Origin: a virus
IMG/VR virus record: IMGVR_UViG_3300044641_002513
Location: 24,897 to 88,896 of that record
Strand: one strand, 5' to 3'
DNA length: 64,000 nt
Both the position numbers and the translations under genes were made by a program. This document shows positions 2,647 to 25,383 of this stretch, in pieces (within the stretch, counting starts at the first letter, position 1; every line of letters starts with the position of its first letter). The notes beneath the pieces are model-generated. The model was not told the DNA's origin. It did not search any database and was given only the letters and a program-made list of their open reading frames with translations.

Positions 2647-2831
2647 ATAGATACAAAAAAGGTTTTTATATAAGTAGATACACAGGATAACACATAGCGA
2701 TTAGTGAGCTGGTGAATTAACACAAAAGGGTTATCCTCTGGTTTTATGGGTTTGCACTTGTATCTATGAAGTTAAAAATTAAAGACTCTAAGTCGGCCCA
2801 AGGTAGGGAAACCCTTATGCCTAATTTTTAA
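2647..2831 (+). ncRNA. candidate structured ncRNA or leader
   Basis: Inverted repeats 2647-2656/2758-2767, 2684-2691/2730-2737 and 2772-2781/2822-2831, plus small hairpins 2784-2794 and 2805-2815; no ORF in the track here. Confidence 0.45.
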
Positions 2832-4864: not shown

Positions 4865-5386
4865 ATGAAACCTCAACACGAGTTTAGTTTCTGGGATTTA
4901 AACAGAGAGTTGTTGCTTATAGAGCAATTTAACTCTTTGTACACAAAAGATACTACTAAGAATAAAGAAAAAAGTTCTAAGCTGATGTGGGCAATTTACT
5001 TTGCTTACAATCCTGAATCTAAGTTCTTTAACATTCCTGATAAACTTAGTATACTAGCTAAAGACTTGTTAAAAGAACCTAAGTTTAATTGGGAATCTTG
5101 TAAAGATGTAGTAGCTTTATACAAAAGTTCTGTATTAACTGATGCTGAACGAGCGTTAGTTACTTGGGGAGAAATTATAACAATGAGAGACGAGTCACTT
5201 AAAACTTTATACAAAGCTGCTATTCAACAAAATGATACAGATGAGTTAGTTAAGTTAGACAAAATGCTAGCTAATACTCCTAAACTATTTGAAGACTACA
5301 AAAAGATTAAGAAAGATTACGAAGAAGAAAAAGTTACTAAAAAAGGTAAACACAATAAGTCTCTAACTGAGGCTGGAGAAATTTAA
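4865..5386 (+). CDS. helical protein, possible terminase small subunit
   Basis: 173 aa, helical, two genes upstream of TerL; the function is a positional inference only. Confidence 0.45.
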   Translation: MKPQHEFSFWDLNRELLLIEQFNSLYTKDTTKNKEKSSKLMWAIYFAYNPESKFFNIPDKLSILAKDLLKEPKFNWESCKDVVALYKSSVLTDAERALVTWGEIITMRDESLKTLYKAAIQQNDTDELVKLDKMLANTPKLFEDYKKIKKDYEEEKVTKKGKHNKSLTEAGEI

Positions 5387-5397
5387 TACTTAAGACA

Positions 5398-5658
5398 ATG
5401 GATAGCATTTGGGAAAATAAATCAAAAATTCTAGAAGGTATTAAAAATACCGTAGCTAAAAATAAATTTGTAAAAGAAGTAGCTAAGGAAAGACATCTAA
5501 TATGTCAAGGTTGTATACACTTGTCTACAGATTGTCCTCCTTTAGTTAAAGAATGTTGTGCTGAATGTGGTTGTTCTGTAAAATTTAAGACCCACAGCCT
5601 AGCTTCAAGTTGTCCTATTAATAAATGGCCTGCAATAGAAACAAATGATAATAAATAA
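5398..5658 (+). CDS. Cys-rich zinc-binding protein
   Basis: CxxC...C...CCxxCGC...K...CP..KW pattern. Confidence 0.7.
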   Translation: MDSIWENKSKILEGIKNTVAKNKFVKEVAKERHLICQGCIHLSTDCPPLVKECCAECGCSVKFKTHSLASSCPINKWPAIETNDNK

Positions 5659-7819
5659 CTCCAATTTCAGATTACCCGAGATACCTAACTTCCATCCAAT
5701 ACTAGAGTATTACGATAGAATTGGTTTTTGGAAAGACCAAAAAAGAAGATGTATAGAAGGATATTGGGTATCAGGTAAATGGATGCCTGGTCCTTTATAT
5801 TACTATATCAACTTTCACAACATACAATTTGAAGACGACTCTTCTGTATCTCAAGCTTTTGGTTTACCGTTTTTAAGAGATATAGATTGGGAATTGTTTC
5901 TACTATACGAAGAATGTAGAGGTTTTTCAGGTTTTGCTGACGACACACAGTTTACTTGTGATAGAAAATATGGACCTGAAAAAGAACTTTCTATAAAACT
6001 AAAAAGGATTACTGAAGAAGAAACTAAAAAGTTTACTTATATAACTGCTAGAGAATATCTACGTAAAAATCACGGCAAATCTTTAGGAAAACCACTATAC
6101 AAAAACTCTGCTAAGCATTTTATGTCTATACAAGCCCGTGGTTCAGGTAAATCCTACTCCTCTTCAGGCATTGTTAATCATAACTTACTATTTGACGGAG
6201 CTACAGACTACGATGACTACCTTACTAGAAGAAAAGCTAAACAATTCTTTGCATCAGACACAGTTGTAGGAGCAATTGACACTAAGTACACAGTGCCTTT
6301 ACTTAAAAAATCCTCTACTGCACTAGAACTTTTAGCAGGAAGTTATAAATTAGGAGATGAGTTTTTTCCTGCACCACTAATGATTGATTATTCAGGGTCA
6401 ATGGCTCCCAATAGAGACATTACAAGTATGTCTGGTTCAGTACTTAGACATAGAACCTTTAAAGATAACCCACTAGCAGCCAATGGTACTAGACCTAACT
6501 TAGTAGTGCTGGATGAGGTAGGTTTTATGTATAACATTAAAGAGTCTTGGGGAGCAGTAGAAGCAACACAAGCATCTAAACAAAAGAAAAACCTAGTAAT
6601 CTGGGCATTAGGTACAGGAGGACTAGTATCAGGTAAAGCAGCATTGTATGCTGAATCTATATTTCGTAATCCGCAAGATTATAACTGTATAGACTTTGAA
6701 GATGTATGGGAACATAGAGGACAAATAGGTTATTTTGTACCTTATTCTAAAACTCTTAATGAGTTTAAGACTGGTGAAAACAAAATAACTGATGACTTGC
6801 TAGCTAATATGTATATTGAAAACAGACGTAAAGAAGCAAAGAAGTCACCTGATCCAACTGTATACCAAACAGAAATTATCAACGGTCCTATGTTGCCTTC
6901 AGAAGCTTTCCTTGTATTAGAAGGAGCTTTCTTTCCAACACTACTAATTAAAGAACAACTAGCTGAAGTTGAAGGAGGTAAATACAAAAAATACACAGAT
7001 GCTTCTTTTAAAGGTAGACTAGTCTTTACACAAGACGGAGCAGTAGACTTTGAAACAATACAAGATGAGAAACCTATTAGAAAGTTCCCTTTAAACAAGA
7101 ATGATGACAAACGAGGGTGTGTAGAACTATGGGCTAAACCACAAAGAAATCCCGACGGTACTATCAACCGAGGAGTGTACATTGCAGGAATAGACGTTGT
7201 TGATAAAGACAAGGCTACTACTGACTCACTACCTTGTATAGTAGTAATGAATAGATTCACTAGACAAATAGTAGCAGAATACACAGGACGTACAGGTGAA
7301 GCTAAAGATTTTTATGAAATCTGCCGTAAGTTGCTAATGTACTACAATGCTATGGGAATGTATGAAAAAAACCTTATTGGTTTATACAACTACTTTGACC
7401 AAAACAAATGTACTTATCTCCTAGCAGAAACTCCTTACCAATTACGCTCAACTGATACTTATAAAGCAGGTACTAATACTTCTAAAGGTATTAATGCATC
7501 AGGTTCTATTAACTCTGAAGGACGTAATATGGTTAAGTCTTGGTTACAAGAAAGAATATCAACAGTATCAGAGACAAGAGTGTATGAAACTATTTATTCT
7601 CCAGCAATGCTAACAGAGTTAGTGATGTGGAATCCTGATGGTAACTTTGATAGAGTATCAGCACTAATAATGTTAATGTGGTTAGACAGTACTATGTATA
7701 AAGAAGTAACACAAAAAGTCGAACAGATAAAAACATTCTTAGATAATCCTTATTTTGAAAAAATGGGAGTACTAAAAAAGAAGCCAATAGAGACTTTTAA
7801 TTCAAATTATTATTCATAG
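5645..7819 (+). CDS. terL: terminase large subunit
   Basis: Walker A ARGSGKS, Walker B VVLDE, nuclease motifs YIAGID and NFDRVSA; crAss-type N-terminus (YYYINF). Confidence 0.95.
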   Translation: MIINNSNFRLPEIPNFHPILEYYDRIGFWKDQKRRCIEGYWVSGKWMPGPLYYYINFHNIQFEDDSSVSQAFGLPFLRDIDWELFLLYEECRGFSGFADDTQFTCDRKYGPEKELSIKLKRITEEETKKFTYITAREYLRKNHGKSLGKPLYKNSAKHFMSIQARGSGKSYSSSGIVNHNLLFDGATDYDDYLTRRKAKQFFASDTVVGAIDTKYTVPLLKKSSTALELLAGSYKLGDEFFPAPLMIDYSGSMAPNRDITSMSGSVLRHRTFKDNPLAANGTRPNLVVLDEVGFMYNIKESWGAVEATQASKQKKNLVIWALGTGGLVSGKAALYAESIFRNPQDYNCIDFEDVWEHRGQIGYFVPYSKTLNEFKTGENKITDDLLANMYIENRRKEAKKSPDPTVYQTEIINGPMLPSEAFLVLEGAFFPTLLIKEQLAEVEGGKYKKYTDASFKGRLVFTQDGAVDFETIQDEKPIRKFPLNKNDDKRGCVELWAKPQRNPDGTINRGVYIAGIDVVDKDKATTDSLPCIVVMNRFTRQIVAEYTGRTGEAKDFYEICRKLLMYYNAMGMYEKNLIGLYNYFDQNKCTYLLAETPYQLRSTDTYKAGTNTSKGINASGSINSEGRNMVKSWLQERISTVSETRVYETIYSPAMLTELVMWNPDGNFDRVSALIMLMWLDSTMYKEVTQKVEQIKTFLDNPYFEKMGVLKKKPIETFNSNYYS

Positions 7820-7845: not shown

Positions 7846-10290
7846 ATGAGCTCTCCTGTAAAAATCCAAGGTTATATCAGTTTTCCAAGACAAAAGTTAT
7901 CTGATGCAGAAAAAACAGACCACTGGTATAAAAAGAATATAGACTTTGCAGAGCATCTATTAACATCGGACGTTAATCTACGTTCTAACTTTAAAAATAA
8001 AAAAAGCAACTACAACTTAAGAGTTAACATCATCAGCTCTAAAGACTTTGAGAAGTTTATCAACCCTGATAACTTAGATTTAGAATCTTTACCTGCTTCT
8101 TTCCAACACATAGGAATAGAAAACAGTAAAATTAACTTGTTGTTAGGAGAATATGCTAAAAGAAAGAAAGACTTTAAAGCATACATATCATCTAACGATT
8201 CAGAAAGTATATCTCGTAAAGAACAAACTTTAACTGACACTATAAAAGCAGAACTAGATAACATCATACAGACTACTTCTATTAGTGATGAAGAAATACA
8301 AAAAAGATTACAACAACTAGAAAAATATAAAACTTACCAATTCCAAGATATTGCAGAGATTACTGCTAACAAAATTCTAAAGAAAGAATACAAAGAAGGA
8401 GATTTTGATTTTACTTTCTTAAGAACTTTTGAAGACTTGCTTACAGCAGGAGAAGAAATAATGTATTGTGGAGTATTAGGAGGCAACCCTGTAATGAGAC
8501 GAGTTAATCCTATGAACTTATACACAATGGGCGGTAACTCAATGTATATCGAAGATGCCGACATTATTGTAGAATATGGTTATAGGTCAATAGGACAAAT
8601 AATAGATGATTACTGGGACGTACTACGACCTGAAGACATTGACTTCTTAGAAAGAGGAAAAGTAGATGCATCATTAGGTTCAGGTGGTGGTATAGGATTA
8701 AACAGAGATATTTCTGTATACGATTACTACGGAGAACAAGGTGCTCTTAATATCTTTCATCCTAACGAAATGGGAGTACGTACATTTGCAGGTGCTTTTG
8801 ATACTTACGGTAACGTACGTGTGCTAAAAGTATGTTGGAGGTCTAGAAGAAAAATAGGTGAGCTTACTTACTTTGATGAAGACGGTAACGAACAAAAAGA
8901 CTATGTTCCTGAAGACTATAAAGTTAACAAAACATTAGGAGAATCTTTAAAATGGATATGGGTTAATGAGTGGATGGAAGGTACTAAGATAGCTGACCAT
9001 GTATATACAGTAATGAGGCCTGTACCTTATGCTTCTAAATCCCTAGTTAACAAATCAAAAGGTACTCCACCTTATGTAGGTAGCGTAAACTCAACAAATG
9101 ATTACAAGGTTCAATCCTTAATGGATGTGATGAAACCGTTAGCTTATTCTTATGACATTGCTTATTACAAACGTGAATTAGCTATTGCTACCTACAAAGG
9201 TTCTTTTACAGCACTTAACAGTTCTTTAGTGCCATCAGGTTGGGACCCTAAAGAATGGATGAGATATGTAACTATCAATAAATTTGGTTGGTTAGACCCT
9301 ACTAATGAAATACTTAAAGGACCTTCTCAAGGTAAGTCAGCAGGAGCTTTCAATACACTTACAGCTCAACAAATACAAGTAGGTGACCCTAATGAAATAG
9401 GAATGTATACTAACTTAATGTTAGATATAGAAAATACTCTAGGTAAAATAGCAGGTGTTACAGGTGCTAGAGAAGGGCAAATACAAAACAGAGAAGCCGT
9501 TAATAATGTAGAACGTGAGGTAGCACAAACTTCTCACATTACAGAAAAATGGTTTGCAATAGATAACAACTTCCGCAAAAGAGTATTAACTAAGTTCTTA
9601 GAGTGTTGTAAATATGCTTATAAAACTAATCCTAAAAAAGGACAATACTTATTAGATGATATGGGGCAACAACTTATAACTCACTTCGACGAGTTTTGTG
9701 CTACGGAGTATGATTTACACTTGTCTAATTCTTCTAATGACCAACAGTTGTTTAATGACCTTAAAGCATTATCTCAAGCAGCTATTCAAAACGGACAAGC
9801 TACTATATCAGATTTAATTGCTATTAGCCAATCTGAATCTGTACAAGATGTTGCAAGAAAATTAGAAGACTCTGCTAGAAAAATTAGAGAAGAAAATCAG
9901 AAAATACAACAACAACAATTAGCTCAACAAGACGAAGCTAATAAATTAATGATGCAAGACAAGCAAGCTCAACGAGAGTGGGAGATTAAAAAACACGACG
10001 ATGATATTGCAGTAGAAAGAGAAAGAATAGAATCTAATATACTTATTGCAAGTATAAAAGAAGAGAATAACAACTACAGAAACAGCACTAATATGGTAGA
10101 CACTGATAACAATGGTGTGGGAGATTTATTAGACTTACGTCGCACTGAAGTTGATGAGAATTTTAAACAAGAACAGATTAACTTAAAGCAACAACAGTTA
10201 GAAGAAACAGTTAGAGCTAATAAAGCTAAAGAGGAACTACAGAAAAAATCTATTGCTGCTCAAGCTAACAGAGCTAATGGAGCAAAATAG
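7846..10290 (+). CDS. portal protein
   Basis: 814 aa after TerL; FPRQKL start, WINEW-like WVNEW, GVTGAREGQI, C-terminal coiled coil with DTDNNG, all typical of crAss-like portals. Confidence 0.9.
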   Translation: MSSPVKIQGYISFPRQKLSDAEKTDHWYKKNIDFAEHLLTSDVNLRSNFKNKKSNYNLRVNIISSKDFEKFINPDNLDLESLPASFQHIGIENSKINLLLGEYAKRKKDFKAYISSNDSESISRKEQTLTDTIKAELDNIIQTTSISDEEIQKRLQQLEKYKTYQFQDIAEITANKILKKEYKEGDFDFTFLRTFEDLLTAGEEIMYCGVLGGNPVMRRVNPMNLYTMGGNSMYIEDADIIVEYGYRSIGQIIDDYWDVLRPEDIDFLERGKVDASLGSGGGIGLNRDISVYDYYGEQGALNIFHPNEMGVRTFAGAFDTYGNVRVLKVCWRSRRKIGELTYFDEDGNEQKDYVPEDYKVNKTLGESLKWIWVNEWMEGTKIADHVYTVMRPVPYASKSLVNKSKGTPPYVGSVNSTNDYKVQSLMDVMKPLAYSYDIAYYKRELAIATYKGSFTALNSSLVPSGWDPKEWMRYVTINKFGWLDPTNEILKGPSQGKSAGAFNTLTAQQIQVGDPNEIGMYTNLMLDIENTLGKIAGVTGAREGQIQNREAVNNVEREVAQTSHITEKWFAIDNNFRKRVLTKFLECCKYAYKTNPKKGQYLLDDMGQQLITHFDEFCATEYDLHLSNSSNDQQLFNDLKALSQAAIQNGQATISDLIAISQSESVQDVARKLEDSARKIREENQKIQQQQLAQQDEANKLMMQDKQAQREWEIKKHDDDIAVERERIESNILIASIKEENNNYRNSTNMVDTDNNGVGDLLDLRRTEVDENFKQEQINLKQQQLEETVRANKAKEELQKKSIAAQANRANGAK

Positions 10291-10378
10291 AGCTATAGAA
10301 CTATAAGAGTTTTATAACAATTAATATACCCTATGTATAAAAATAATTTTAATATTGTAACCAATTAAGACAGCAAAT

Positions 10379-11518
10379 ATGAGTACAGAGAATGAAGAGT
10401 TATTTGAAGGACTTCAAATAATGACTCCCTCAGAATTAAATTCAGCAGTAGCTGAATCTAATAAAGAAGAAACTGGAGAAGAAGAAATTGAAGTAGATAA
10501 CCTACAGGAAGTAATAACTCCTGTAGAGAAAACTACTAAACAGAGTAACACTGAATCCTCAGTAGATACTGCTAGTAAAACAGAAGCAGTCTACAAAGGA
10601 TTAATGAAAGAACTTGTTAACGCAGGTATTTTAACAGCAGAAGATGTTGAAAAACTAGATGAGTTGCCAGGTACTTTAGATTCGATTAAATCGTTAGTCG
10701 ATAAAACAGTAAAAACTAATTTTAAAAAGGCAGAAGAGAATTGGAAAAAAAGTATGCCAAGTGTTAAGAAACGATTTTTAGAAATCGAAGACGCATTTGA
10801 CGAAACTGACCAAGCTATCTTAATGGCCCAAAGATTAGAGTTCTTTGATAGTATTGATAATGATGCTTTAGAAAAAGATGTAACCTTGCAAAAACAAGTT
10901 TACTTTGACTTATTAAAGTCTAAAAACTTTTCTGACCAAGATGCAATGGAGGCAATAGAAGATGCAGAGTCTGTAGGTAAGCTAGCAGATAAAGCTCTAA
11001 AAGCTATTCCTGAATTAAAAAACCAAGCTCAAGGTTATGTAAAAGAAGCTAAGGCTTTTAAAGAAGAAAGAACTAAAGCAGAGATTGAAGCTCAAAACAA
11101 AGCGTTTGAAAATTTAATCTCAAACATAGAATCTAGAGATGCTTTTATTGATGGGTTAAGCCTAAATAAAGTAGCAAAGGATAGATTAAAAGGTAATATC
11201 TTAAACCCTGTTTTTAAAGATGATGCAGGCCAAGAGTATAACAGTTTAATGTATAAACAAAAAAGAAACCCAGTAGAGTTTGAAATGCTAATCAACTACT
11301 ACGATACAATTGGGTTATTTAACTTAGATAAGCAAGGTAAGTTTAAACCTGATATTTCTAAATTAAAAAATGTAGCAAAAACAGCTGCGGTAAATGAGTT
11401 AGACAAAATCATTTCCTCAGAAGAACAAAGAGGCGTAGGACGTAATACATCAGTAGAAACATCACAGAAAACTGAAGGATTACTAAGTATGCTAGAAAGT
11501 GCTTTTACTAAAAAATAA
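10379..11518 (+). CDS. putative capsid scaffolding/assembly protein
   Basis: Acidic, helical 379-aa protein between portal and MCP, the conserved crAss position. Confidence 0.6.
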   Translation: MSTENEELFEGLQIMTPSELNSAVAESNKEETGEEEIEVDNLQEVITPVEKTTKQSNTESSVDTASKTEAVYKGLMKELVNAGILTAEDVEKLDELPGTLDSIKSLVDKTVKTNFKKAEENWKKSMPSVKKRFLEIEDAFDETDQAILMAQRLEFFDSIDNDALEKDVTLQKQVYFDLLKSKNFSDQDAMEAIEDAESVGKLADKALKAIPELKNQAQGYVKEAKAFKEERTKAEIEAQNKAFENLISNIESRDAFIDGLSLNKVAKDRLKGNILNPVFKDDAGQEYNSLMYKQKRNPVEFEMLINYYDTIGLFNLDKQGKFKPDISKLKNVAKTAAVNELDKIISSEEQRGVGRNTSVETSQKTEGLLSMLESAFTKK

Positions 11519-11553
11519 TAAATATATACCGTTAACAATTTAAAAAAAACAAA

Positions 11554-13065
11554 ATGGCTCAATTACTTCCATTACAAAGGTATGAAGCGAAAGATTACAA
11601 TGGTCTGGTAACAGATAACCACTTCTATTCTTTATACCAACAAAAACCACAATTGATTAGTAACGTAATCAAAGAAATCTACAAAACTAATTTACAAGGT
11701 AAACTTCGTGAATTTGTTGATAGATTTCCTGTTAAAGAAGTAGAACAAGAAAATGGTTTTTACAACTGGATGCTACAAGGACAACAAGATAAAAACTTGC
11801 CTTTAGTAGACGCTGAAACAATCAATGGTCTTACTATTTCTGCTGGAACTTTCCCTGCTAACGTAGGTGCAAACGGAGAGCGTTTCTATTTAATCTTTGA
11901 CGAACCTTTGTTTGAAGAAACAAACGTACTAAGAGGAGAAGTTGATGATTACCACTTATTAGTTAAAAAAGCTATGGATGCTGGTTCTCGTTACAAAGTA
12001 GAAGTTGAATTAGTTACAGACAATCCTAACAAAACTGTTCCTTCTGAGGAATTAGCTGTTGGAACTCGTTGGTCTAAATACTATTCATTAAGTCCTTCTA
12101 CATTATCTTATCAAGGTGCTAAACCTTACTTTACATCTCCTTGGAGAATGGAAAACCGTCCTACAACAATGAGAATGGAATATGAAGTAGCAGGTAACAC
12201 TATTAATAAAGGTAAAAACGAACCATTAGAATTTGGTTTCAATTACAAAGGACAATCTGAGTCTGTATGGATTAACTACCAAGATTTAGTTGCTCATCAC
12301 CAGTGTGAAGAAATGTTCGCAAGAATGTTAATGTACGGTAAGAAAAACTGGACTGCTGACCACAAATACTTGAACAAAGATGATAAAACGAAATATGCTA
12401 TCGAATCAGGTGCAGGTTTCTTTGAGCAAATTGCTCCATCTAACGTTCATTACTATAATACTTATGACCTTGACTGGCATTTAGAAATGTTGTTAGACAT
12501 GGGTGTTGGTAAATTAGAGCGTGGAAAACGTACTATCCACTTGTTAACAGGTGAGTTTGGTGCTATCGAAATCTCTAAACAAATCAACGCTAAATCAGGT
12601 GCAGGTAAGTTTACAGTAATCTCTGACAAATTCTTAACTTCTAATACTAACCCAGGAAACTTAGGTGGAAAAAACACTAAAGGTTTAATGGAGCCACAAT
12701 GGAATGTTTACGAATGGTACAATGGAGTTACTATTATGGTTGAAATCGTTGATTTCTTCGATGATGATGTATACTTCCCACAACGTCACCCTGATGGTAA
12801 AGGTATCGTAGAATCACACAGAATCCTTGCTTTAGATTATGGAGATAATGCAGGTATCTACCGTATTAAACCAAAAGGAGTTCCTGATTACAATTGGGCT
12901 TATATCCCAGGTATGAGAGACCCATTCTCTCCAGCAGGAAAAGGTTCACCTAAAATGGTAGCTTCACCAGTTGACGGTTACTCTGTACATTTCCAGAAAT
13001 GGGGTGGTATGATGATCGAAGACCCAACTAAAGTTGTAGACTTACGCTTAGTAGTTGAAAGATGA
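11554..13065 (+). CDS. major capsid protein
   Basis: 503 aa; crAss MCP-like motifs (IESGAGFFEQI, LLTGEFG, YIPGMRDPF, DGYSVH); followed by a terminator. Confidence 0.92.
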   Translation: MAQLLPLQRYEAKDYNGLVTDNHFYSLYQQKPQLISNVIKEIYKTNLQGKLREFVDRFPVKEVEQENGFYNWMLQGQQDKNLPLVDAETINGLTISAGTFPANVGANGERFYLIFDEPLFEETNVLRGEVDDYHLLVKKAMDAGSRYKVEVELVTDNPNKTVPSEELAVGTRWSKYYSLSPSTLSYQGAKPYFTSPWRMENRPTTMRMEYEVAGNTINKGKNEPLEFGFNYKGQSESVWINYQDLVAHHQCEEMFARMLMYGKKNWTADHKYLNKDDKTKYAIESGAGFFEQIAPSNVHYYNTYDLDWHLEMLLDMGVGKLERGKRTIHLLTGEFGAIEISKQINAKSGAGKFTVISDKFLTSNTNPGNLGGKNTKGLMEPQWNVYEWYNGVTIMVEIVDFFDDDVYFPQRHPDGKGIVESHRILALDYGDNAGIYRIKPKGVPDYNWAYIPGMRDPFSPAGKGSPKMVASPVDGYSVHFQKWGGMMIEDPTKVVDLRLVVER

Positions 13066-13079
13066 TAAAATTTTAAACG

Positions 13080-13112
13080 AGTTCTCCTCCCTAAAAAGAG
13101 GAGGACTTTTTT
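13080..13112 (+). terminator. intrinsic terminator after MCP
   Basis: CTCCTC/GAGGAG stem, extendable, followed by a T run. Confidence 0.75.
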
Positions 13113-13152
13113 AAAACGGAGAATTTAATATAATAATTTAAGACAGCAAAAA

Positions 13153-14091
13153 ATGGAAACAGCAGAAAAACAAAAAACTGTTTACGGTACTTTTCTACAA
13201 AATAGATTAGTTTCTGTAAAAGCAGTAGAGTCTTCAGGCAAATGGAGCACGTTATTAGTAAAAGGTCAAGAAAAACAAAAAGACCCTTTTATGTATAACA
13301 AAGTAAAACGAAGCTATCAAGTACCACTTAATAGCGAATTAAAAGGAGGAGGAGTAAAAGTTATTTTGGACGACCAAAAGAGAGTCAAAATCCAAAAGTA
13401 TATGGAATCATTTCCTAACGGAATGACCCAAAAAGAGTTCTTTGAAAAAGAGTTAGGAGTAGACTTAAACCCTACATCAGAAGCAGATAAAAACTTCTGG
13501 AGAAGTGATCGTAGAGGTAGAGTAGTTATTACTAAAGAAGGGATGACATTAAACTTGAATCAATCTTTAGATATGTTAAAGTATCTAATACTGATTTCTA
13601 ATAGAATGCTTATCGCTCCATCTTACGATGAGAGAACCTTAAAAGCTACTTACGAGTTTATGATTGTAGATGAAAGTAAAGTTACATCTCAAAAACTTGA
13701 AGAAGCTAACGTAAAATCTCAAGCTTATATTAAGTTTGCTGAAGTTACAAACAGTCGTTCTTCTATCATAGGATTTATTAAATCACTAGGTAGAACTATT
13801 CCTGCTACTGCTACTGATGAATGGCTAAAAGGAGAAGTATTAAATGTTGTTGATAACAGCCCTAAATATTTCTTAGAAGTAGTTGACCATCCGCAGTATA
13901 ACGAGCGTATCTTTGTACAAGAAGCTATTGAAGCTGGTGCAATAATTCGTAAAGGAGAAAAAAGATATGTTTTAGATAACGGTGCTGAATTAGGAGACTT
14001 AAATGATACTATCAATTATCTTTTAAATCCTGATAACCAAGAATCTAAAATGAGAATAAAAGGAAAAATTGAACTATTAAAACGTAAATAA
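13153..14091 (+). CDS. conserved crAss-like protein downstream of MCP (gene-75-like)
   Basis: Position plus C-terminal AIEAGAIIRKG...YLLNPDNQE motif. Confidence 0.7.
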   Translation: METAEKQKTVYGTFLQNRLVSVKAVESSGKWSTLLVKGQEKQKDPFMYNKVKRSYQVPLNSELKGGGVKVILDDQKRVKIQKYMESFPNGMTQKEFFEKELGVDLNPTSEADKNFWRSDRRGRVVITKEGMTLNLNQSLDMLKYLILISNRMLIAPSYDERTLKATYEFMIVDESKVTSQKLEEANVKSQAYIKFAEVTNSRSSIIGFIKSLGRTIPATATDEWLKGEVLNVVDNSPKYFLEVVDHPQYNERIFVQEAIEAGAIIRKGEKRYVLDNGAELGDLNDTINYLLNPDNQESKMRIKGKIELLKRK

Positions 14092-14855
14092 TGACGGCTA
14101 ACGAAATGGCTAATTTGCTAGATGAGAAAGTAGATAGAGTATCTAGTTTTGGTTCCCCTGGGTACGAAGACTTTGACTACACTTCTGTATTATCTGAAGC
14201 ACAACAGCTATACGTTAAAAAGTTTTTTGATGAAGTAAACAATAGAAAAGGCAAAGGCTTTGAAGAAATTGAAATAAGAAACCAAGGATTAGCTGCTCTA
14301 GTAAAGGACGGTAACAACCTAACGGCTTCTGCTTCTCAAACAGGAATTATTACGAATAATTATGTTATAGGAAAGTTCTTTGATTTACCGCTTGACCACA
14401 TGTATACTATATACGAAGAGTGTACTATAGATAAAAAGATATGTGGAACAGAGGAATTTATTATTGGGTACATAGTAACAATTGCTCACAATGAAATGCA
14501 AAGGTTTAACTGGAGCAAATATAAAAAACCGTTTTACAACATTACGGGAGATTGTAGAGTTTGGCGTTCTGAGTTTTCAAGAAGCACTTCTGGTATTTTA
14601 CCTAGTGCTGCTGCAACTGCTAAACGTCACGAATTGTTTACTGATAAAACTTTTAATATAACTAACTATCATATTAGATATGTTAAAAACCCATTAGACA
14701 TAGTAGTTAATAGAACTACTGTTGCTAATCAAAGAAACTGTGAATTAGATACTTCAACTCACGTAGTTATAGTAGATATTGCAGCAGACTTGTTACTACA
14801 AAGAGTTAAAGAACAAAAAGTTCCTTTAATAGAAGGATTTAAAGATTTAGAATAA
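14091..14855 (+). CDS. tail/head-tail ring protein (gene-74-like)
   Basis: SPGYED...LSEAQ, YHIRYVKNP, CELDTSTHVVIVDIA ring-protein motifs. Confidence 0.75.
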   Translation: MTANEMANLLDEKVDRVSSFGSPGYEDFDYTSVLSEAQQLYVKKFFDEVNNRKGKGFEEIEIRNQGLAALVKDGNNLTASASQTGIITNNYVIGKFFDLPLDHMYTIYEECTIDKKICGTEEFIIGYIVTIAHNEMQRFNWSKYKKPFYNITGDCRVWRSEFSRSTSGILPSAAATAKRHELFTDKTFNITNYHIRYVKNPLDIVVNRTTVANQRNCELDTSTHVVIVDIAADLLLQRVKEQKVPLIEGFKDLE

Positions 14856-14886
14856 TAAAAGATTAATAATTTAAAAACAAAATAAA

Positions 14887-16182
14887 ATGTTAAGAAAAGC
14901 AAACAATGTGTTTAGCGTAGTGCTAAACGACGTAGATGTAGCTACTACAGCATTACCGTCTGTAGGTACAGTTATTACAAACGCTAACTTACCTGCTGGT
15001 GCAGTCGTACTATGTGACTTAGGTTTACGTAGAATGTCTAACACTGAATATGCAGCGTTAGCAAATGGTGACCAATACTTTGTAGTACAAGGTAAAGGAG
15101 CTACTGAGCCATTAATGAAATCTCCAGTTATTACTAAAGGAACTGCTAAGTTTACTATTGCTAAACACAAACCTGCTGTTCAGCAAGTTACAACTGTTGG
15201 TTATAATGGTACAACTGGTGCTCTTCCTGTAGCTAGCAACTCTGATTTCTTTATTAAAGTTCGTAAGCACGATAACGATGCAGCTAACCGTTCTCAACCT
15301 ATGAGTTTATTTGCTGGTCCAGTTCGTACTGATGCTTCAGGTACTCAAGAAGAATTGGCTTTTGCATTAGTTGCAAATGGTTTAAAAAACTTTGCACAAG
15401 AGCCTGCTAATGGTTACTTGAAATTTGAAGCATTAGTTGCTGGAACTCAAGCTGACTGGGTAGGAACTGCAACACACTTATCTTTTACTAAAGGTTCAAG
15501 AGTAGCTTTGTTTACTGATAGTGCAGGTGCAGCTTCTACAGCTACAGCTCCAACTGTAGGTGGTATCTTACGTTCATTAGGAGTAGCTTATAAAATTACA
15601 GCTTCTTCTACTACGTCTGTTACATTAAACTATGCTTACCAAGGTGATACAGGTTTAGTAGCAGGTGGTACTACAGCAGCTTCTCAAGTAGGTATTGTAG
15701 GAACTCCAGGTGACTACGGTGTACGTTTGACAGGTGTTGCTGCTCCATTTAATGTTAACACATTTAGAGATTACTACGCTAACCGTTTCAATGTAACTTT
15801 CTCAGATACGTCTACTTTAGTTACTTTGCTTACAGGTGCTCGTAATGGTAATGGTGTATGGCAACAAGTTGCTATGGACGAATATATGAACTACGGTTTT
15901 GAAGGAGAAAATAACCAATTGGCTACTCCTTCTGTACCTCGTGACCAAGTTGTTAAAATCCCAGGAGTAAACAGCAACACTGCTGCTACTTCTAAATACT
16001 CTGCTCTTAACATTGCTTGGGAAGAGAATATTGGCGGATTAGTTTCAGCTTCAACTGCAAGAGGTAACGTAGTAGTATATCTTAATTTAGATTCTTCAGG
16101 AGACTTAGACACAGCTACATCTAACAATGGTGAAGCATTTGTAGTAGCTTTAGGTCTTACTGCGGCAGATTTTGACGAGTAA
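14887..16182 (+). CDS. abundant structural protein, probably auxiliary capsid protein (gene-73-like)
   Basis: Ala/Gly/Thr-rich beta protein with MCP-like codon bias, GNGVWQQVA motif, own terminator. Confidence 0.65.
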   Translation: MLRKANNVFSVVLNDVDVATTALPSVGTVITNANLPAGAVVLCDLGLRRMSNTEYAALANGDQYFVVQGKGATEPLMKSPVITKGTAKFTIAKHKPAVQQVTTVGYNGTTGALPVASNSDFFIKVRKHDNDAANRSQPMSLFAGPVRTDASGTQEELAFALVANGLKNFAQEPANGYLKFEALVAGTQADWVGTATHLSFTKGSRVALFTDSAGAASTATAPTVGGILRSLGVAYKITASSTTSVTLNYAYQGDTGLVAGGTTAASQVGIVGTPGDYGVRLTGVAAPFNVNTFRDYYANRFNVTFSDTSTLVTLLTGARNGNGVWQQVAMDEYMNYGFEGENNQLATPSVPRDQVVKIPGVNSNTAATSKYSALNIAWEENIGGLVSASTARGNVVVYLNLDSSGDLDTATSNNGEAFVVALGLTAADFDE

Positions 16183-16196
16183 ATTCTCCAACCCCC

Positions 16197-16251
16197 AGTA
16201 GTCCCACCACAGAAATTTTGCTGTCTATGTGGTGGGTACTACTATTTTTTT
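16197..16251 (+). terminator. intrinsic terminator with a large 16-nt loop
   Basis: AGTAGT-CCCACCACA / TGTGGTGGG-T-ACTACT stem followed by a T run. Confidence 0.85.
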
Positions 16252-16254
16252 GTT

Positions 16255-16262
16255 TACTTTTG
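16255..16262 (+). promoter_or_regulatory. TAnnTTTG promoter element
   Basis: TACTTTTG immediately after the terminator, ending 16 nt before the next ATG. Confidence 0.5.
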
Positions 16263-16278
16263 AATATATAAAATTGTT

Positions 16279-17121
16279 ATGGCTCTACTCCCTAAAATTT
16301 CTAGTAGTTTATCAGGTAAATGCAACTTAATTTCTTTTACAGAGCAAACTAATCCCTATGTAATAACTACTAACACAGGAGGCTGGGGTTCGCCTAACAT
16401 AGATACAGACGAAGTACAATACGCAAGCGTAGCGTTCTATAACTTAGAACAGACTCCTGCAATACTAGCATCAGGAAACGGAACCATTGTTGGTAACGTT
16501 TTTACAGATGTTATACATTTAACAGGAACTTTTGCTATTGGTCAAGCACTAATAGCTCCAGGAATAGCTCCTGGTACAGTAATCACAGCATTTCTTACAG
16601 GTAATGGTACTAATAACGGAGGTACTTATCAAGTTAATATAGCTCAACCTATTTCTTTAACTGTTATTAACGGAGTTTCTTTAGTTTCTCAATACATACT
16701 TAAAGACACTACTACAGGTCTAGACTTATATGCAAATGCAGTCTCTGCTCCTACACCTGGGAGTTTTCCTATTTTAACTGAAGCTACTTGGTCTAACCCT
16801 GATGGAATTTACCAATTAGTTTACATTGTTATAGGACCAGAAGACGAAGTATATACTAATGAAACTCAACACGTACTGTTCTTATGCAATTTATGTAATT
16901 GTAAAGATGCTTTAGTACTAAAACTAATTAATGCTTGTAACACGCCAACAGTAGCCAAGTTAAAAGAGCAAGTTGACCAAATGGAAATATTTATCTATGG
17001 AATCAAAACTGCTTTTGCTTGTGCCGACTTTGATACTGCTGATAACATACTAAACGCTGCTTCAACTTATTGTGAAACCATTGTAGGTTGTGCAAGTTGT
17101 GGGTGTTCAGGTAATTGCTAA
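16279..17121 (+). CDS. putative tail hub/collar structural protein, Cys-rich C-terminus
   Basis: TGGWGSPN and PDGIY motifs, an inserted small beta domain, and a C-terminal CASCGCSGNC. Confidence 0.6.
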   Translation: MALLPKISSSLSGKCNLISFTEQTNPYVITTNTGGWGSPNIDTDEVQYASVAFYNLEQTPAILASGNGTIVGNVFTDVIHLTGTFAIGQALIAPGIAPGTVITAFLTGNGTNNGGTYQVNIAQPISLTVINGVSLVSQYILKDTTTGLDLYANAVSAPTPGSFPILTEATWSNPDGIYQLVYIVIGPEDEVYTNETQHVLFLCNLCNCKDALVLKLINACNTPTVAKLKEQVDQMEIFIYGIKTAFACADFDTADNILNAASTYCETIVGCASCGCSGNC

Positions 17122-19603: not shown

Positions 19604-20994
19604 TTTCTTTAATGCCAAAAATACAGTTTCAGTTTTTGATTGATTCATTTCCAAGTATTACGATGGGTTTCGATTTCAGAAAGTTAAGGAGTGCTTATAG
19701 TGGCAATGCTATAAGAGTACTTAGAACATCCGACAATACAGAACAAGATTTTGGCTTTGTATCAAATGAAGTTGTTGGGAGTGATATTGTTGATTTTGTT
19801 GGATGGAATCTTTTAGCTTATTCTGAAGATATAAGTCAGACTACTTATCAGAAAGTTAATTTAGTAGCTACTGGTACACCTCCTTATATAGATGTTGAAA
19901 CAGCCCCAAATGGGACATTAACTGCTGATAAATTAATTGAAAACACTTCATTCACAAACCATTTTTTAACACAAACGTTAGGTATTACAGTTGTTGGTTT
20001 AGATTATAATTTTTCTGTTTATCTAAAAGCTGGTGAAAGAACTAAAACTGATATACAAGCTGGTGGTGTGGGACAAGCAAGAATAAATCTATTGACTGGT
20101 GCAATTGAAACATCTACATTTCCTATTACTCCAATTGTTACTGATGCTGGTAACGGATGGTGGAGATTTTCTGTTACTTTTAATGCTAATTCAACACTTA
20201 TAAATCCATTATATAGAATTTTCACTGTAAACAACTTAAACCAATCTTCTTATGTAGGTGATGGGGTTAGCGGTGTATATGTTTGGGGCTTTCAATTAAC
20301 ACAGAGTTCGACTTTATTAGCCTATGATAAAACAGGGGCAACAGCGAGGGGATATGGTTCGATTTCTAAAAGATATGACCAAGCAACTGGAGGAGATGAT
20401 GTTATAAATGCAACAATAATTCGACAACCTATAATTGTAAATGGTGGAAATATAATCACAGATGGTGGTAAATTAGCTTTGCAAGGTGGTGCAACATTAG
20501 GTTTACGCAGTACTAACACACTTTCTTTAAGCGCATACAGCGATTTATTAATGACTTTCGGATTGAATGTCACCAATGTCACGACTCAACAATACTTATT
20601 TGAAAGTTCTACAGCTTATACATCTAATAATGGTGCTTTAGGAATTTTTATACAAGGAAACATATTGTATGTAACTCAAAGAATAAGTAGTACAATATCT
20701 TCAAGAAAAACATACCCAATAAGTACAGGTAGGCAACTGATAACTATAAGATTTAGAACTGGACAAGTAGCTTCGGATGCTTCTCAAGTTTGGATAAATG
20801 GAATAGAAATAAGTGGAACTGTAACTCTCAATAATAATTCAACAACTTTAAGTAATCAGGTTATATATCTTTTTGCTAGAGGAGGAAATTCAATTGGATT
20901 CTTAGGAAAATATCAAAATTTTACAATGTTTACAGATTCAACACAAAGAGCAGGAATTGAAAACAACATAAACAACTATTATGGCTATTATTAG
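19588..20994 (+). CDS. receptor-binding protein, ConA/LamG-like with an inserted carbohydrate-binding-like domain
   Basis: RKLRSAYSGNAIRV...EQDFGF start, inserted NLLAYSE...VWGFQL module, IENNINNYY end. Confidence 0.65.
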   Translation: MYRSLISLMPKIQFQFLIDSFPSITMGFDFRKLRSAYSGNAIRVLRTSDNTEQDFGFVSNEVVGSDIVDFVGWNLLAYSEDISQTTYQKVNLVATGTPPYIDVETAPNGTLTADKLIENTSFTNHFLTQTLGITVVGLDYNFSVYLKAGERTKTDIQAGGVGQARINLLTGAIETSTFPITPIVTDAGNGWWRFSVTFNANSTLINPLYRIFTVNNLNQSSYVGDGVSGVYVWGFQLTQSSTLLAYDKTGATARGYGSISKRYDQATGGDDVINATIIRQPIIVNGGNIITDGGKLALQGGATLGLRSTNTLSLSAYSDLLMTFGLNVTNVTTQQYLFESSTAYTSNNGALGIFIQGNILYVTQRISSTISSRKTYPISTGRQLITIRFRTGQVASDASQVWINGIEISGTVTLNNNSTTLSNQVIYLFARGGNSIGFLGKYQNFTMFTDSTQRAGIENNINNYYGYY

Positions 20995-24562: not shown

Positions 24563-25383
24563 TGTTTGCAGGAAGAACCGTATCATACAAAGCTATTATA
24601 GACAAAGTACTAAGAGACTTTGCTTTTAACTACGACATTAAACAAGAAGAAGGTCTAGAGTGGTTAGCTGAGTTTATGGCTCATACTAACGTAGGTATGG
24701 TTATGAGTAACGACATTGCTTATATTGAGATTTGCGATGGTTTAGGAGAACTTCCTTTTGACTTACATAAAATTAATCAAACAGCTTACTTAGAAGGAGT
24801 TGACTCAATAGAAGAAGCTGAATGTGGACACGGAAGACCTTTTCCAATGCGTTGGGCTACAGACAACTTCCACAAAAGATACCACAAAGACGATAGAGAT
24901 TATACTACTGAGTCGAGAGAAACTTACACTGTAGAAAACAATTATATCTTTCCTAGTTTTAGTAAAGGATTTATAATGATGAGCTACGTAGCTATTCCAA
25001 CAGATGATTGTGGTTATCCAGTAGTACCAGCTGAACAACAATGGTTAGAAGCTGCTGCTTTTTACATTGGCCACAAAATTGCTAGAAAACTTTGGTATAT
25101 GGGACAACTAAGAGATGCTATATTCCAAAAAATAGAAACAGACAGAGATTGGTATTTTGCTCAAGCAGTTAATCACGCTAAACAATGGAACGGTGTTGAC
25201 GAAGCTGAATCAGTTAAAAATGCTACTATTAGAACAATACCTGATATACAAGCACATGCTTCTTTCTTTGCTAATATGCAGTTACCAGAACAACGTAAAT
25301 TTAGACCTAAAGCAGGAAGTGCTTTAGTGTCTACTATTAATACTATTAGTGCTAGTGTACAAGGACCTAATCCAGCAATATAA
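24562..25383 (+). CDS. tail tubular (ring) protein
   Basis: LPFDL, YIFPSFSKG, SYVAIPTDDCGYP, WYFAQA motifs; directly before the stabilization protein. Confidence 0.8.
   Translation: MFAGRTVSYKAIIDKVLRDFAFNYDIKQEEGLEWLAEFMAHTNVGMVMSNDIAYIEICDGLGELPFDLHKINQTAYLEGVDSIEEAECGHGRPFPMRWATDNFHKRYHKDDRDYTTESRETYTVENNYIFPSFSKGFIMMSYVAIPTDDCGYPVVPAEQQWLEAAAFYIGHKIARKLWYMGQLRDAIFQKIETDRDWYFAQAVNHAKQWNGVDEAESVKNATIRTIPDIQAHASFFANMQLPEQRKFRPKAGSALVSTINTISASVQGPNPAI

Follow-up and report, generated by a model that had tools for sequence, protein, structure and literature searches.

Covarying complementarity between the end of a late gene block and two start regions flanking the capsid gene of a crAss-like phage

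The window analysed here is a 64 kb stretch of DNA (33% G+C) covering positions 24897-88896 of the 88,896-base IMG/VR virus record IMGVR_UViG_3300044641_002513; by gene content, the source is a crAss-like phage, uncultivated and from lake water, and DNA almost identical to it occurs in many metagenomes of lake water. Two genes of the window that flank the gene of the major capsid protein, one labelled 'scaffold' by gene position only and the other designated g5, carry the same short tag at their start codons, and the complement of this tag lies in the loop of the terminator hairpin that follows gene g7, at the end of the gene block g5-g6-g7. Since these partners are conserved or change together in relatives, they probably serve to control protein synthesis through the action of one RNA on another, the host having no classical ribosome-binding sites. 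On the sequence comparisons presented below, we consider it fairly probable that the 3' end of the g5-g7 messenger RNA (mRNA), either as part of the message or as a processed fragment, base-pairs with the start regions of the scaffold-position gene and of g5 and lowers their translation.

Complementary boxes at two start codons and at the end of the gene block

Two copies of the 13-mer TTAAGACAGCAAA stand in front of start codons: one (10365-10377) is separated by 1 nt from the ATG of the scaffold-position gene (10379), the other (13138-13150) by 2 nt from that of g5 (13153); the start regions of the capsid gene and of g7 are devoid of it. The loop of the g7 terminator contains TTTTGCTGTCT, which could form 11 consecutive pairs with the g5 site and 10 with the scaffold site. 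In the location of all three sites, the lengths of the complementarity and the two starts lacking the motif, these results agree with an earlier note on this DNA, which was made from the letters alone and proposed that the hairpin pairs with selected start regions. A count over the whole 88,896-base record found the exact 10-mer AGACAGCAAA at three sites only, i.e., at the two starts and, as the complement, in the terminator loop, and the 9-mer GACAGCAAA at one further place, where the expectation is ~0.2-0.3 copies per strand. In AT-rich DNA of 64 kb, the recurrence of a 13-mer is nothing exceptional, and matches with two mismatches or fewer occur at the chance level; the unusual feature is the placement of the sites, not the repetition of the 13-mer itself. 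When pairing with the loop was predicted for 96 start regions of the genome (mean -6.1 kcal/mol, standard deviation 2.5 kcal/mol), g5 ranked first (-15.8 kcal/mol) and the scaffold-position gene second (-14.9 kcal/mol). Fold predictions indicated that both leaders are unstructured.

The g7 hairpin (16197-16243) folds at -23.9 kcal/mol (z = -4.6) and starts 15 nt past the g7 stop codon; together with the T-run, it has the form of a 3' intrinsic terminator. A simple terminator scan overlooked it, the loop limit of the scan being 8 nt and the loop here being 16 nt long. The complementarity is not restricted to the tag and the loop: the g5 leader bears two boxes, a (GGAGAATTTA) and b (the tag), and the g7 3' end bears their counterparts, a' (TAAATTCTCC) and b' (the loop box), with 10 nt for a/a' and 11 nt for b/b'. 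An Rfam scan of 9800-17000 revealed no match at E values up to 1.

Two other strings resembling these boxes were noticed. The extra copy of GACAGCAAA lies on the minus strand at genome positions 19825-19836, 5,071 bases before the window start, in the early/middle region; it forms codons 1-4 (ATGACAGCAAAA) of an open reading frame (ORF) of ~58 codons and is, in this way, also located at a start codon, and it is taken as a chance occurrence. The string GGAGAAATTTAATACTTAAGACA at window positions 5372-5397, directly 5' of the ATG (5398) of an 86-residue ORF upstream of the large terminase gene, resembles the composite g5 leader, the likeness covering box a and the beginning of box b. As a candidate leader element it was rejected: most of its letters still encode the end of the gene before it, and the likeness was judged to be a coincidence.

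Conservation and covariation in relatives

Searches of IMG/VR with the capsid protein yielded ~120 distinct syntenic loci, with capsid identities from 100% to 48%; the counts of tags and 3' regions given here refer to distinct regions of relatives with at least 60% capsid protein identity. The tag hexamer GACAGC was found in 55/56 scaffold start regions, exactly once and between -12 and +9, and in 71/74 g5 start regions, between -20 and +29, with two copies in 38 of them. None of the capsid (0/69) or portal (0/47) start regions contains it; it was encountered in one of the 56 g7 start regions and in eight of the 69 g6 start regions, where the copies are located at +51. Seven start regions were compared, two of which have the motif as a specific feature. 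The complement, GCUGUC, is present in all 42 distinct g7 3' regions; leader and loop elements are, thus, kept together, and the earlier note had regarded relatives retaining the one and losing the other as the outcome that would speak against its proposal. An alignment of 31 terminators contains GCTGTC unchanged in the loop of every sequence (31/31), the stem having compensatory changes in 8/13 pairs and the loop ranging in length from ~11 to 22 nt.

Tags of g5 that fall within coding sequence occupy two reading frames, giving Asp-Ser or Thr-Ala; in the tier-B relatives, the tag is located in codons 2-4. The spacing between the tag of the scaffold-position gene and the -7-like box upstream varies from ~10 to 30 nt. 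By these comparisons, the tag tracks the start codon and neither the promoter nor the protein; the variable position of the g5 tag and its reading in two frames mean that selection acts on the nucleotides of the span covered by the 30S subunit, not on the protein. Tag and complement are kept where the scaffold proteins are only ~30-70% identical and where the adjacent intergenic sequence changes. A chance match in AT-rich DNA, inherited by descent, would find some support in the abundance of repeated 13-mers in 64 kb at 33% G+C and in the chance-level frequency of inexact matches, but it is contradicted by the conservation, by the specificity for two of seven start regions and by the covariation, and we regard it as hardly credible.

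The second pair of boxes, a/a', exists in seven matched versions (GGAGAATTTA, GAGAATTA, GAGAGAAAA, GGAGAGAA, GGAGAAAAA, CGAGAGAAAAA and TTGGGAGA), the complement of each being found after the g7 stop codon; among 20 distinct types, own a/a' pairs were more stable than permuted ones (p about 0.0008). One relative, L157, has GAGAGAGAA in place of GACAGC in its scaffold leader, and this string matches box a', not the loop. The clade with 56% capsid identity has a pair of its own, where the large terminator loop contains AAGUCUGCC and the scaffold and g5 starts contain AUGGCAGAC(UU), i.e., GUCUGCC in the loop with GGCAGAC at the starts. In the 53% clade (D), the complement of both leaders, with a 12-nt match to that of g5, is found in single-stranded sequence located between a hairpin and the terminator; part of this seed is paired in the predicted fold, and, with paired bases masked, the clade can be considered only a moderately supported further case. 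Cross-clade swaps indicated that own-clade pairs are strongest for the scaffold and g5 leaders, not for the capsid or g7 leaders. With long stems masked, the scaffold-position gene and g5 took ranks 1 and 2 of 8-13 genes in 8/16 representative loci belonging to three clades; masking by the full minimum-free-energy fold gave erratic ranks, and long-stem-only masking was used instead.

The same comparisons bear on the suggestion that leader tags and loop are independent targets of proteins or ribonucleases, e.g., of a translational repressor and of a factor of terminator-loop stability, the complementarity being functionless. Each element is conserved by itself, and phage translational repressors binding to start regions exist, T4 RegA being an example. 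However, an exact 9-11-nt complement of independently conserved elements is very unlikely to arise by chance, and the same logic recurs with other sequences, both in the seven a/a' variants and in the pair of GGCAGAC with GUCUGCC; separate recognition therefore seems improbable.

Genes and transcripts of the region, and competing explanations

The gene order of the region (Table 1) is identical to that of crAss001, where Gp31 is followed by Gp32 (capsid), Gp33, Gp34/35 (ring proteins) and Gp36 (auxiliary capsid protein); the place of g7 as the counterpart of Gp36, like the 'scaffold' label, is assigned by position only. A tblastn comparison indicated that g5 is ~30% identical to crAss001 Gp33 and to phi14:2 g090 (E about 1e-18). 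The C-terminal 60 residues of the g5 model (pLDDT 80.6) superpose on the C-terminal domain of RecA (VIA-align Z 9.5, rmsd 1.7), the remainder of the model having a fold without a clear match; crAss001 Gp33 is annotated as a protein with a double-stranded DNA (dsDNA)-binding domain. A Foldseek search with the g5 model revealed no match below E = 0.4, and sequence and profile searches of the PDB with g5, g7 and the product of the scaffold-position gene were empty. Neither the tblastn search with g7 against phage records nor the blastn search with 10000-17000 against annotated phage records produced a match. Gp31 and Gp33 of crAss001 are not named as parts of the virion in the published virion atlas (PMC10172136), from which we infer that the tag-bearing genes are at least positional counterparts of two capsid-flanking proteins of this kind. 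The term 'head operon', used in the earlier note, is apt only in part, g6 encoding a tail ring protein and g5 the homologue of Gp33. In the 53% clade (L174-L182; e.g., L177:8000-8378), an extra ORF of ~100 codons is situated between the capsid terminator and g5, and its product is very rich in Lys, Gly and Ala.

Table 1. Genes, boxes and terminators of the region (window coordinates)
Feature	Position	Strand	Remarks
Large terminase	5645-7819		
Portal	7846-10290		
-7-like box TAATATTG	10350-10357	+	5' of the scaffold-position gene; resembles the Bacteroidota -7 promoter box
Leader tag b, scaffold-position gene	10365-10377	+	core GACAGCAAA at 10369-10377
Scaffold-position gene, 379 aa	10379-11518	+	no family match; same place as crAss001 Gp31
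Major capsid protein	11554-13065	+	family match, Crass_capsid PF23898; start region without tag
Intrinsic terminator 3' of the capsid gene	13079-13112	+	fold of 13070-13190: -24.5 kcal/mol, z = -3.9
Box a GGAGAATTTA, g5 leader	13118-13127	+	10-nt exact complement of box a'
Leader tag b, g5	13138-13151	+	AGACAGCAAAA at 13141-13151, just before ATG 13153
g5, 312 aa	13153-14091	+	homologue of crAss001 Gp33
g6, tail ring protein 3/4	14091-14855	+	PF25710 CrAss_Ring_3_4, E = 1e-19
g7, 431 aa	14887-16182	+	no family match; same place as crAss001 auxiliary capsid protein Gp36
Box a' TAAATTCTCC	16180-16189	+	includes the g7 stop codon; unpaired flank 5' of the hairpin
Terminator hairpin after g7	16197-16251	+	stem arms 16197-16211 and 16228-16243; loop 16212-16227; T-run 16245-16251
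Loop box b' TTTTGCTGTCT	16216-16226	+	within the 16-nt loop
g8	16279-17121		

The capsid gene is followed by a hairpin with a T-run that is kept in relatives. No terminators are present between g5 and g7, which belong to the same gene block by gene order; on these grounds, the g5 leader and the g7 3' end would be parts of one transcript. The -7-like box upstream of the scaffold-position gene, TAATATTG, is a putative promoter element by its likeness to TAnnTTTG, the known promoter consensus of Bacteroidota; the box is kept as TTTTAATATTGTAAC in nearly all relatives and as TAATTTTG in the 53% clade. No conserved box of the -7 type was found in relatives either before g5 or in the last 250 nt of g7, so the block g5-g7 is probably reached by read-through of the capsid terminator, and the regulator would then be the tail of the read-through message or a fragment cut from this tail. 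A separate small RNA (sRNA) made from an internal promoter in g7 was considered and rejected, there being no conserved -7-type box. The 48% clade (L201-L231) is arranged differently, with exact TAnnTTTG boxes (TAATTTTG, TAACTTTG and TATATTTG) located 15-40 nt before the ATG of the scaffold-position gene, g5 and g7; this suggests separate promoters of the host type in that clade, whereas the clade of the window has no box before g5. One freshwater RNA library (depth ~4) contained a contig ending at 16196 and another one starting at 16197 right after the Illumina adapter. The boundary falls on the exact base of the hairpin and, as a single observation, is at most a weak hint of an RNA cut.

Bacteroidota messages have no Shine-Dalgarno sequences and rely on A-rich leaders. 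In the mechanism that we propose, the 3' end of the g5-g6-g7 transcript would expose two single-stranded segments, a' in the flank of the hairpin and b' in the large terminator loop, which could base-pair with the tags located in the ribosome window, namely with b at the scaffold-position gene and with both a and b at g5. The 3' end may act within the full-length mRNA or as a processed fragment; the pairing with g5 would possibly occur in cis, between the 5' and 3' parts of the message, and the pairing with the scaffold-capsid mRNA in trans. Most likely, the pairing would hinder the binding of the 30S subunit on both leaders, because Bacteroidota initiate on unstructured A-rich leaders without Shine-Dalgarno sequences and both leaders are predicted to be unstructured. 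A precedent is the Bacteroides sRNA GibS, which represses by pairing across the start codons of mRNAs lacking Shine-Dalgarno sequences (PMC7366714). The synthesis of the scaffold-position and g5 proteins would be reduced relative to that of the capsid, ring and g7 proteins of the same messages, setting their stoichiometry, and the feedback would scale with read-through into g5-g7. What the earlier note had proposed, a 3'-end hairpin pairing with selected starts, has passed the comparison of conservation and covariation and is partly supported; the pairing itself, the RNA species and the effect on translation are predicted from these comparisons.

Pairing might also occur purely in cis in the long read-through transcript, where a panhandle of the 5' and 3' ends of the g5-g7 message would serve mRNA stability or 3'-end formation and not translation control. 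The boxes a and b of the g5 leader and a' and b' of the 3' end would share one transcript, which is consistent with such a role, as is the lack of a conserved promoter box before g5 or inside the g7 end, and in Bacillus subtilis the pairing of the 5' and 3' untranslated regions (UTRs) of hbs affects the action of RNases (PMC5737220). Yet the scaffold leader is addressed as well, on a message that would mostly end at the capsid terminator; the tags stand exactly in the ribosome window, and pairing of the loop would leave the terminator stem unchanged. A role restricted to cis appears quite unlikely, and we place it, like separate recognition and chance, below the DNA-binding protein discussed further on.

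Several observations weigh against translational control by pairing of the g5-g7 tail. The invariant core yields no covariation inside the main clade, and the bases flanking the core do not covary consistently. The boxes a and b follow each other in the identical 5'-3' order on both partners, and, with this equal order, both helices could form together only in a crossed, pseudoknot-like geometry. After masking, the scaffold and g5 starts of clade E (L186) were not top-ranked, and this clade was rejected as a further case, the result not being significant; in the 48% clade (G) and in crAss001, no comparable complementarity was found at the operon-end position. The contigs of four lake metatranscriptome runs were all short and of low depth and carry no information on strand, ends and level. 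The direction of the effect could be either repression, which we infer, or stabilisation. Finally, the covariation of inverted sites would also fit a DNA-binding protein with drifting specificity, and g5 carries a domain annotated as dsDNA-binding.

This last point leads to the most serious of the alternatives, where the boxes are DNA sites of a sequence-specific dsDNA-binding protein, possibly g5 itself, with operators at the scaffold-position gene and g5 and an inverted site at the operon end, and where the control is transcriptional. One motif at three places, changing between clades, is what drifting specificity predicts; the annotation of Gp33 and the likeness of the g5 C-terminus to that of RecA point in the same direction, and a site in front of g5 itself suits autoregulation. 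Against this, the tag follows the start codon, not the -7-like box, and enters the coding region in either of two frames; in the well-supported clades, the third site is inverted and belongs to a part of the RNA left unpaired (loop or flank), around which the stem covaries as an RNA helix. Moreover, two separate box pairs each covary, and the arrangement is not one composite operator, since an inversion of a...b would not give the order a'...b'. We consider such a protein unlikely. An invertible DNA segment was rejected as well: the left end reads a then b and the right end a' then b', and an inverted copy would read b' then a'.

Relation to known systems and biological meaning

The earlier note knew of no described equivalent of this arrangement, which is too strong a statement, as icaR, hly/prsA2, GibS and the c4 RNA of phage P1 share the principle. 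In the icaR mRNA of Staphylococcus aureus, translation is repressed through a 3'-UTR box with complementarity to the message's own ribosome-binding region (PMC3868564); the boxes a/a' and b/b' of g5-g7 are laid out in the manner of this pairing between the 3'-UTR and the 5'-UTR, and the complementarity of the g5 leader and the g7 3' end covaries. The target in icaR is a Shine-Dalgarno sequence, and the duplex is cut by RNase III (PMC3868564), whereas the phage arrangement, as known here from sequence, belongs to a host type without Shine-Dalgarno sequences, has one of its boxes in a terminator loop and addresses a second gene on another cistron. The hly 3'-UTR of Listeria pairs with the 5'-UTR of prsA2 (PMC8722363), an mRNA-mRNA interaction that links functionally connected genes; the likeness lies in the 3' end of one message pairing with the leader of another one, as proposed for the phage. 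By the title of that paper, a factor is expressed in a coupled way with its chaperone, and the link would accordingly be a positive one, while occlusion of the leader is more likely for the phage, where the elements are phage-encoded.

The closest system with regard to the host is GibS of Bacteroides thetaiotaomicron, whose single-stranded seeds R1 and R2 pair with start regions lacking Shine-Dalgarno sequences and repress them; the same study lists 21 UTR-derived sRNA candidates (PMC7366714). GibS and the phage element share the host phylum and have conserved single-stranded seeds aimed at start-codon regions, but GibS comes from an independent gene of the host, which is intergenic and has a promoter of its own, and the phage element is the 3' end of a structural operon and has no conserved promoter.

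Among phage RNAs, the c4 antisense RNA works through two boxes and is cut out of a leader. It corresponds to Rfam family RF01695, the covariance model of which was not matched in 9800-17000. In phages P1 and P7, c4 acts on a non-overlapping target of the same operon and blocks its expression via short complementary boxes (Citron and Schuster 1990, cited in PMC8198154); it lies upstream of its targets and controls a lysis-lysogeny antirepressor. The element described here differs in its position, following both targets and closing a block of late virion genes on the 3' side, and in matching no Rfam family; it is not an upstream segment of the operon processed from a leader. The enterobacterial sRNAs CpxQ, SroC and DapZ are derived from 3'-UTRs, share the terminator of a coding message and have a conserved seed, which is located upstream of the terminator hairpin and is Hfq-dependent. 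The phage element likewise shares the terminator of a coding message and possesses a conserved unpaired seed matching the starts of the targets, but it has its main seed within the terminator loop, and the existence of a separate RNA is hypothetical here.

Literature searches found no description of tail-to-leader pairing in Crassvirales. The principle of pairing is already known. New are its setting among late genes of a crAss-like phage and its layout, in which the terminator loop provides the main seed, a seed in the flank takes in a stop codon and the capsid gene lies between the addressed genes.

Other complementary strings were noticed in the same genome. A second candidate set belongs to its early operon, where the string GUGUUUUAAAGG, on the minus strand ~255-267 bases before the window start (genome ~24629-24641), is unpaired between two strong hairpins, the second of which is followed by a U-run, and is complementary to CTTTAAAACAC-type strings located 5-10 nt before three early start codons (minus-strand genes at window positions 742, 2235 and 360). 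The leader of the minus-strand gene at 23 contains ATTAACACAAA, which has an 11-nt complement at window positions 2716-2728 (minus strand), in an ORF-free region (~2700-2770); this complement may be due to chance.

Perhaps Crassvirales use a kind of private addressing, where phage-specific tags in the ribosome window mark chosen morphogenesis genes and the complements are displayed in the loops or flanks of operon 3' ends throughout the family; this generalisation is tentative, and the candidate set of tag and anti-tag in the early operon of the same genome would favour it as a family-wide principle. The crAss-like phages are among the most abundant in gut and water, and little is known about how they control the ratio of virion and assembly proteins; translation control in Bacteroidota, which do not use Shine-Dalgarno pairing, is also little known. 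The conserved and covarying link of one tail to two leaders provides a concrete hypothesis that is accessible to tests by mutation. A tag of 6-11 nt and a hairpin make up this short, modular element, which therefore offers a possible design for translational control in Bacteroidota. If the proposed pairing is true, the late genes of a lytic phage would contain riboregulation, with an added case of a seed in a terminator loop. Under the wider scheme of private addressing, the tail of a message would determine how strongly other messages are translated where the host has no Shine-Dalgarno recognition, and in this lineage the positional counterparts of Gp31 and Gp33 that flank the capsid gene would be governed by the neck/auxiliary-capsid operon through its tail.

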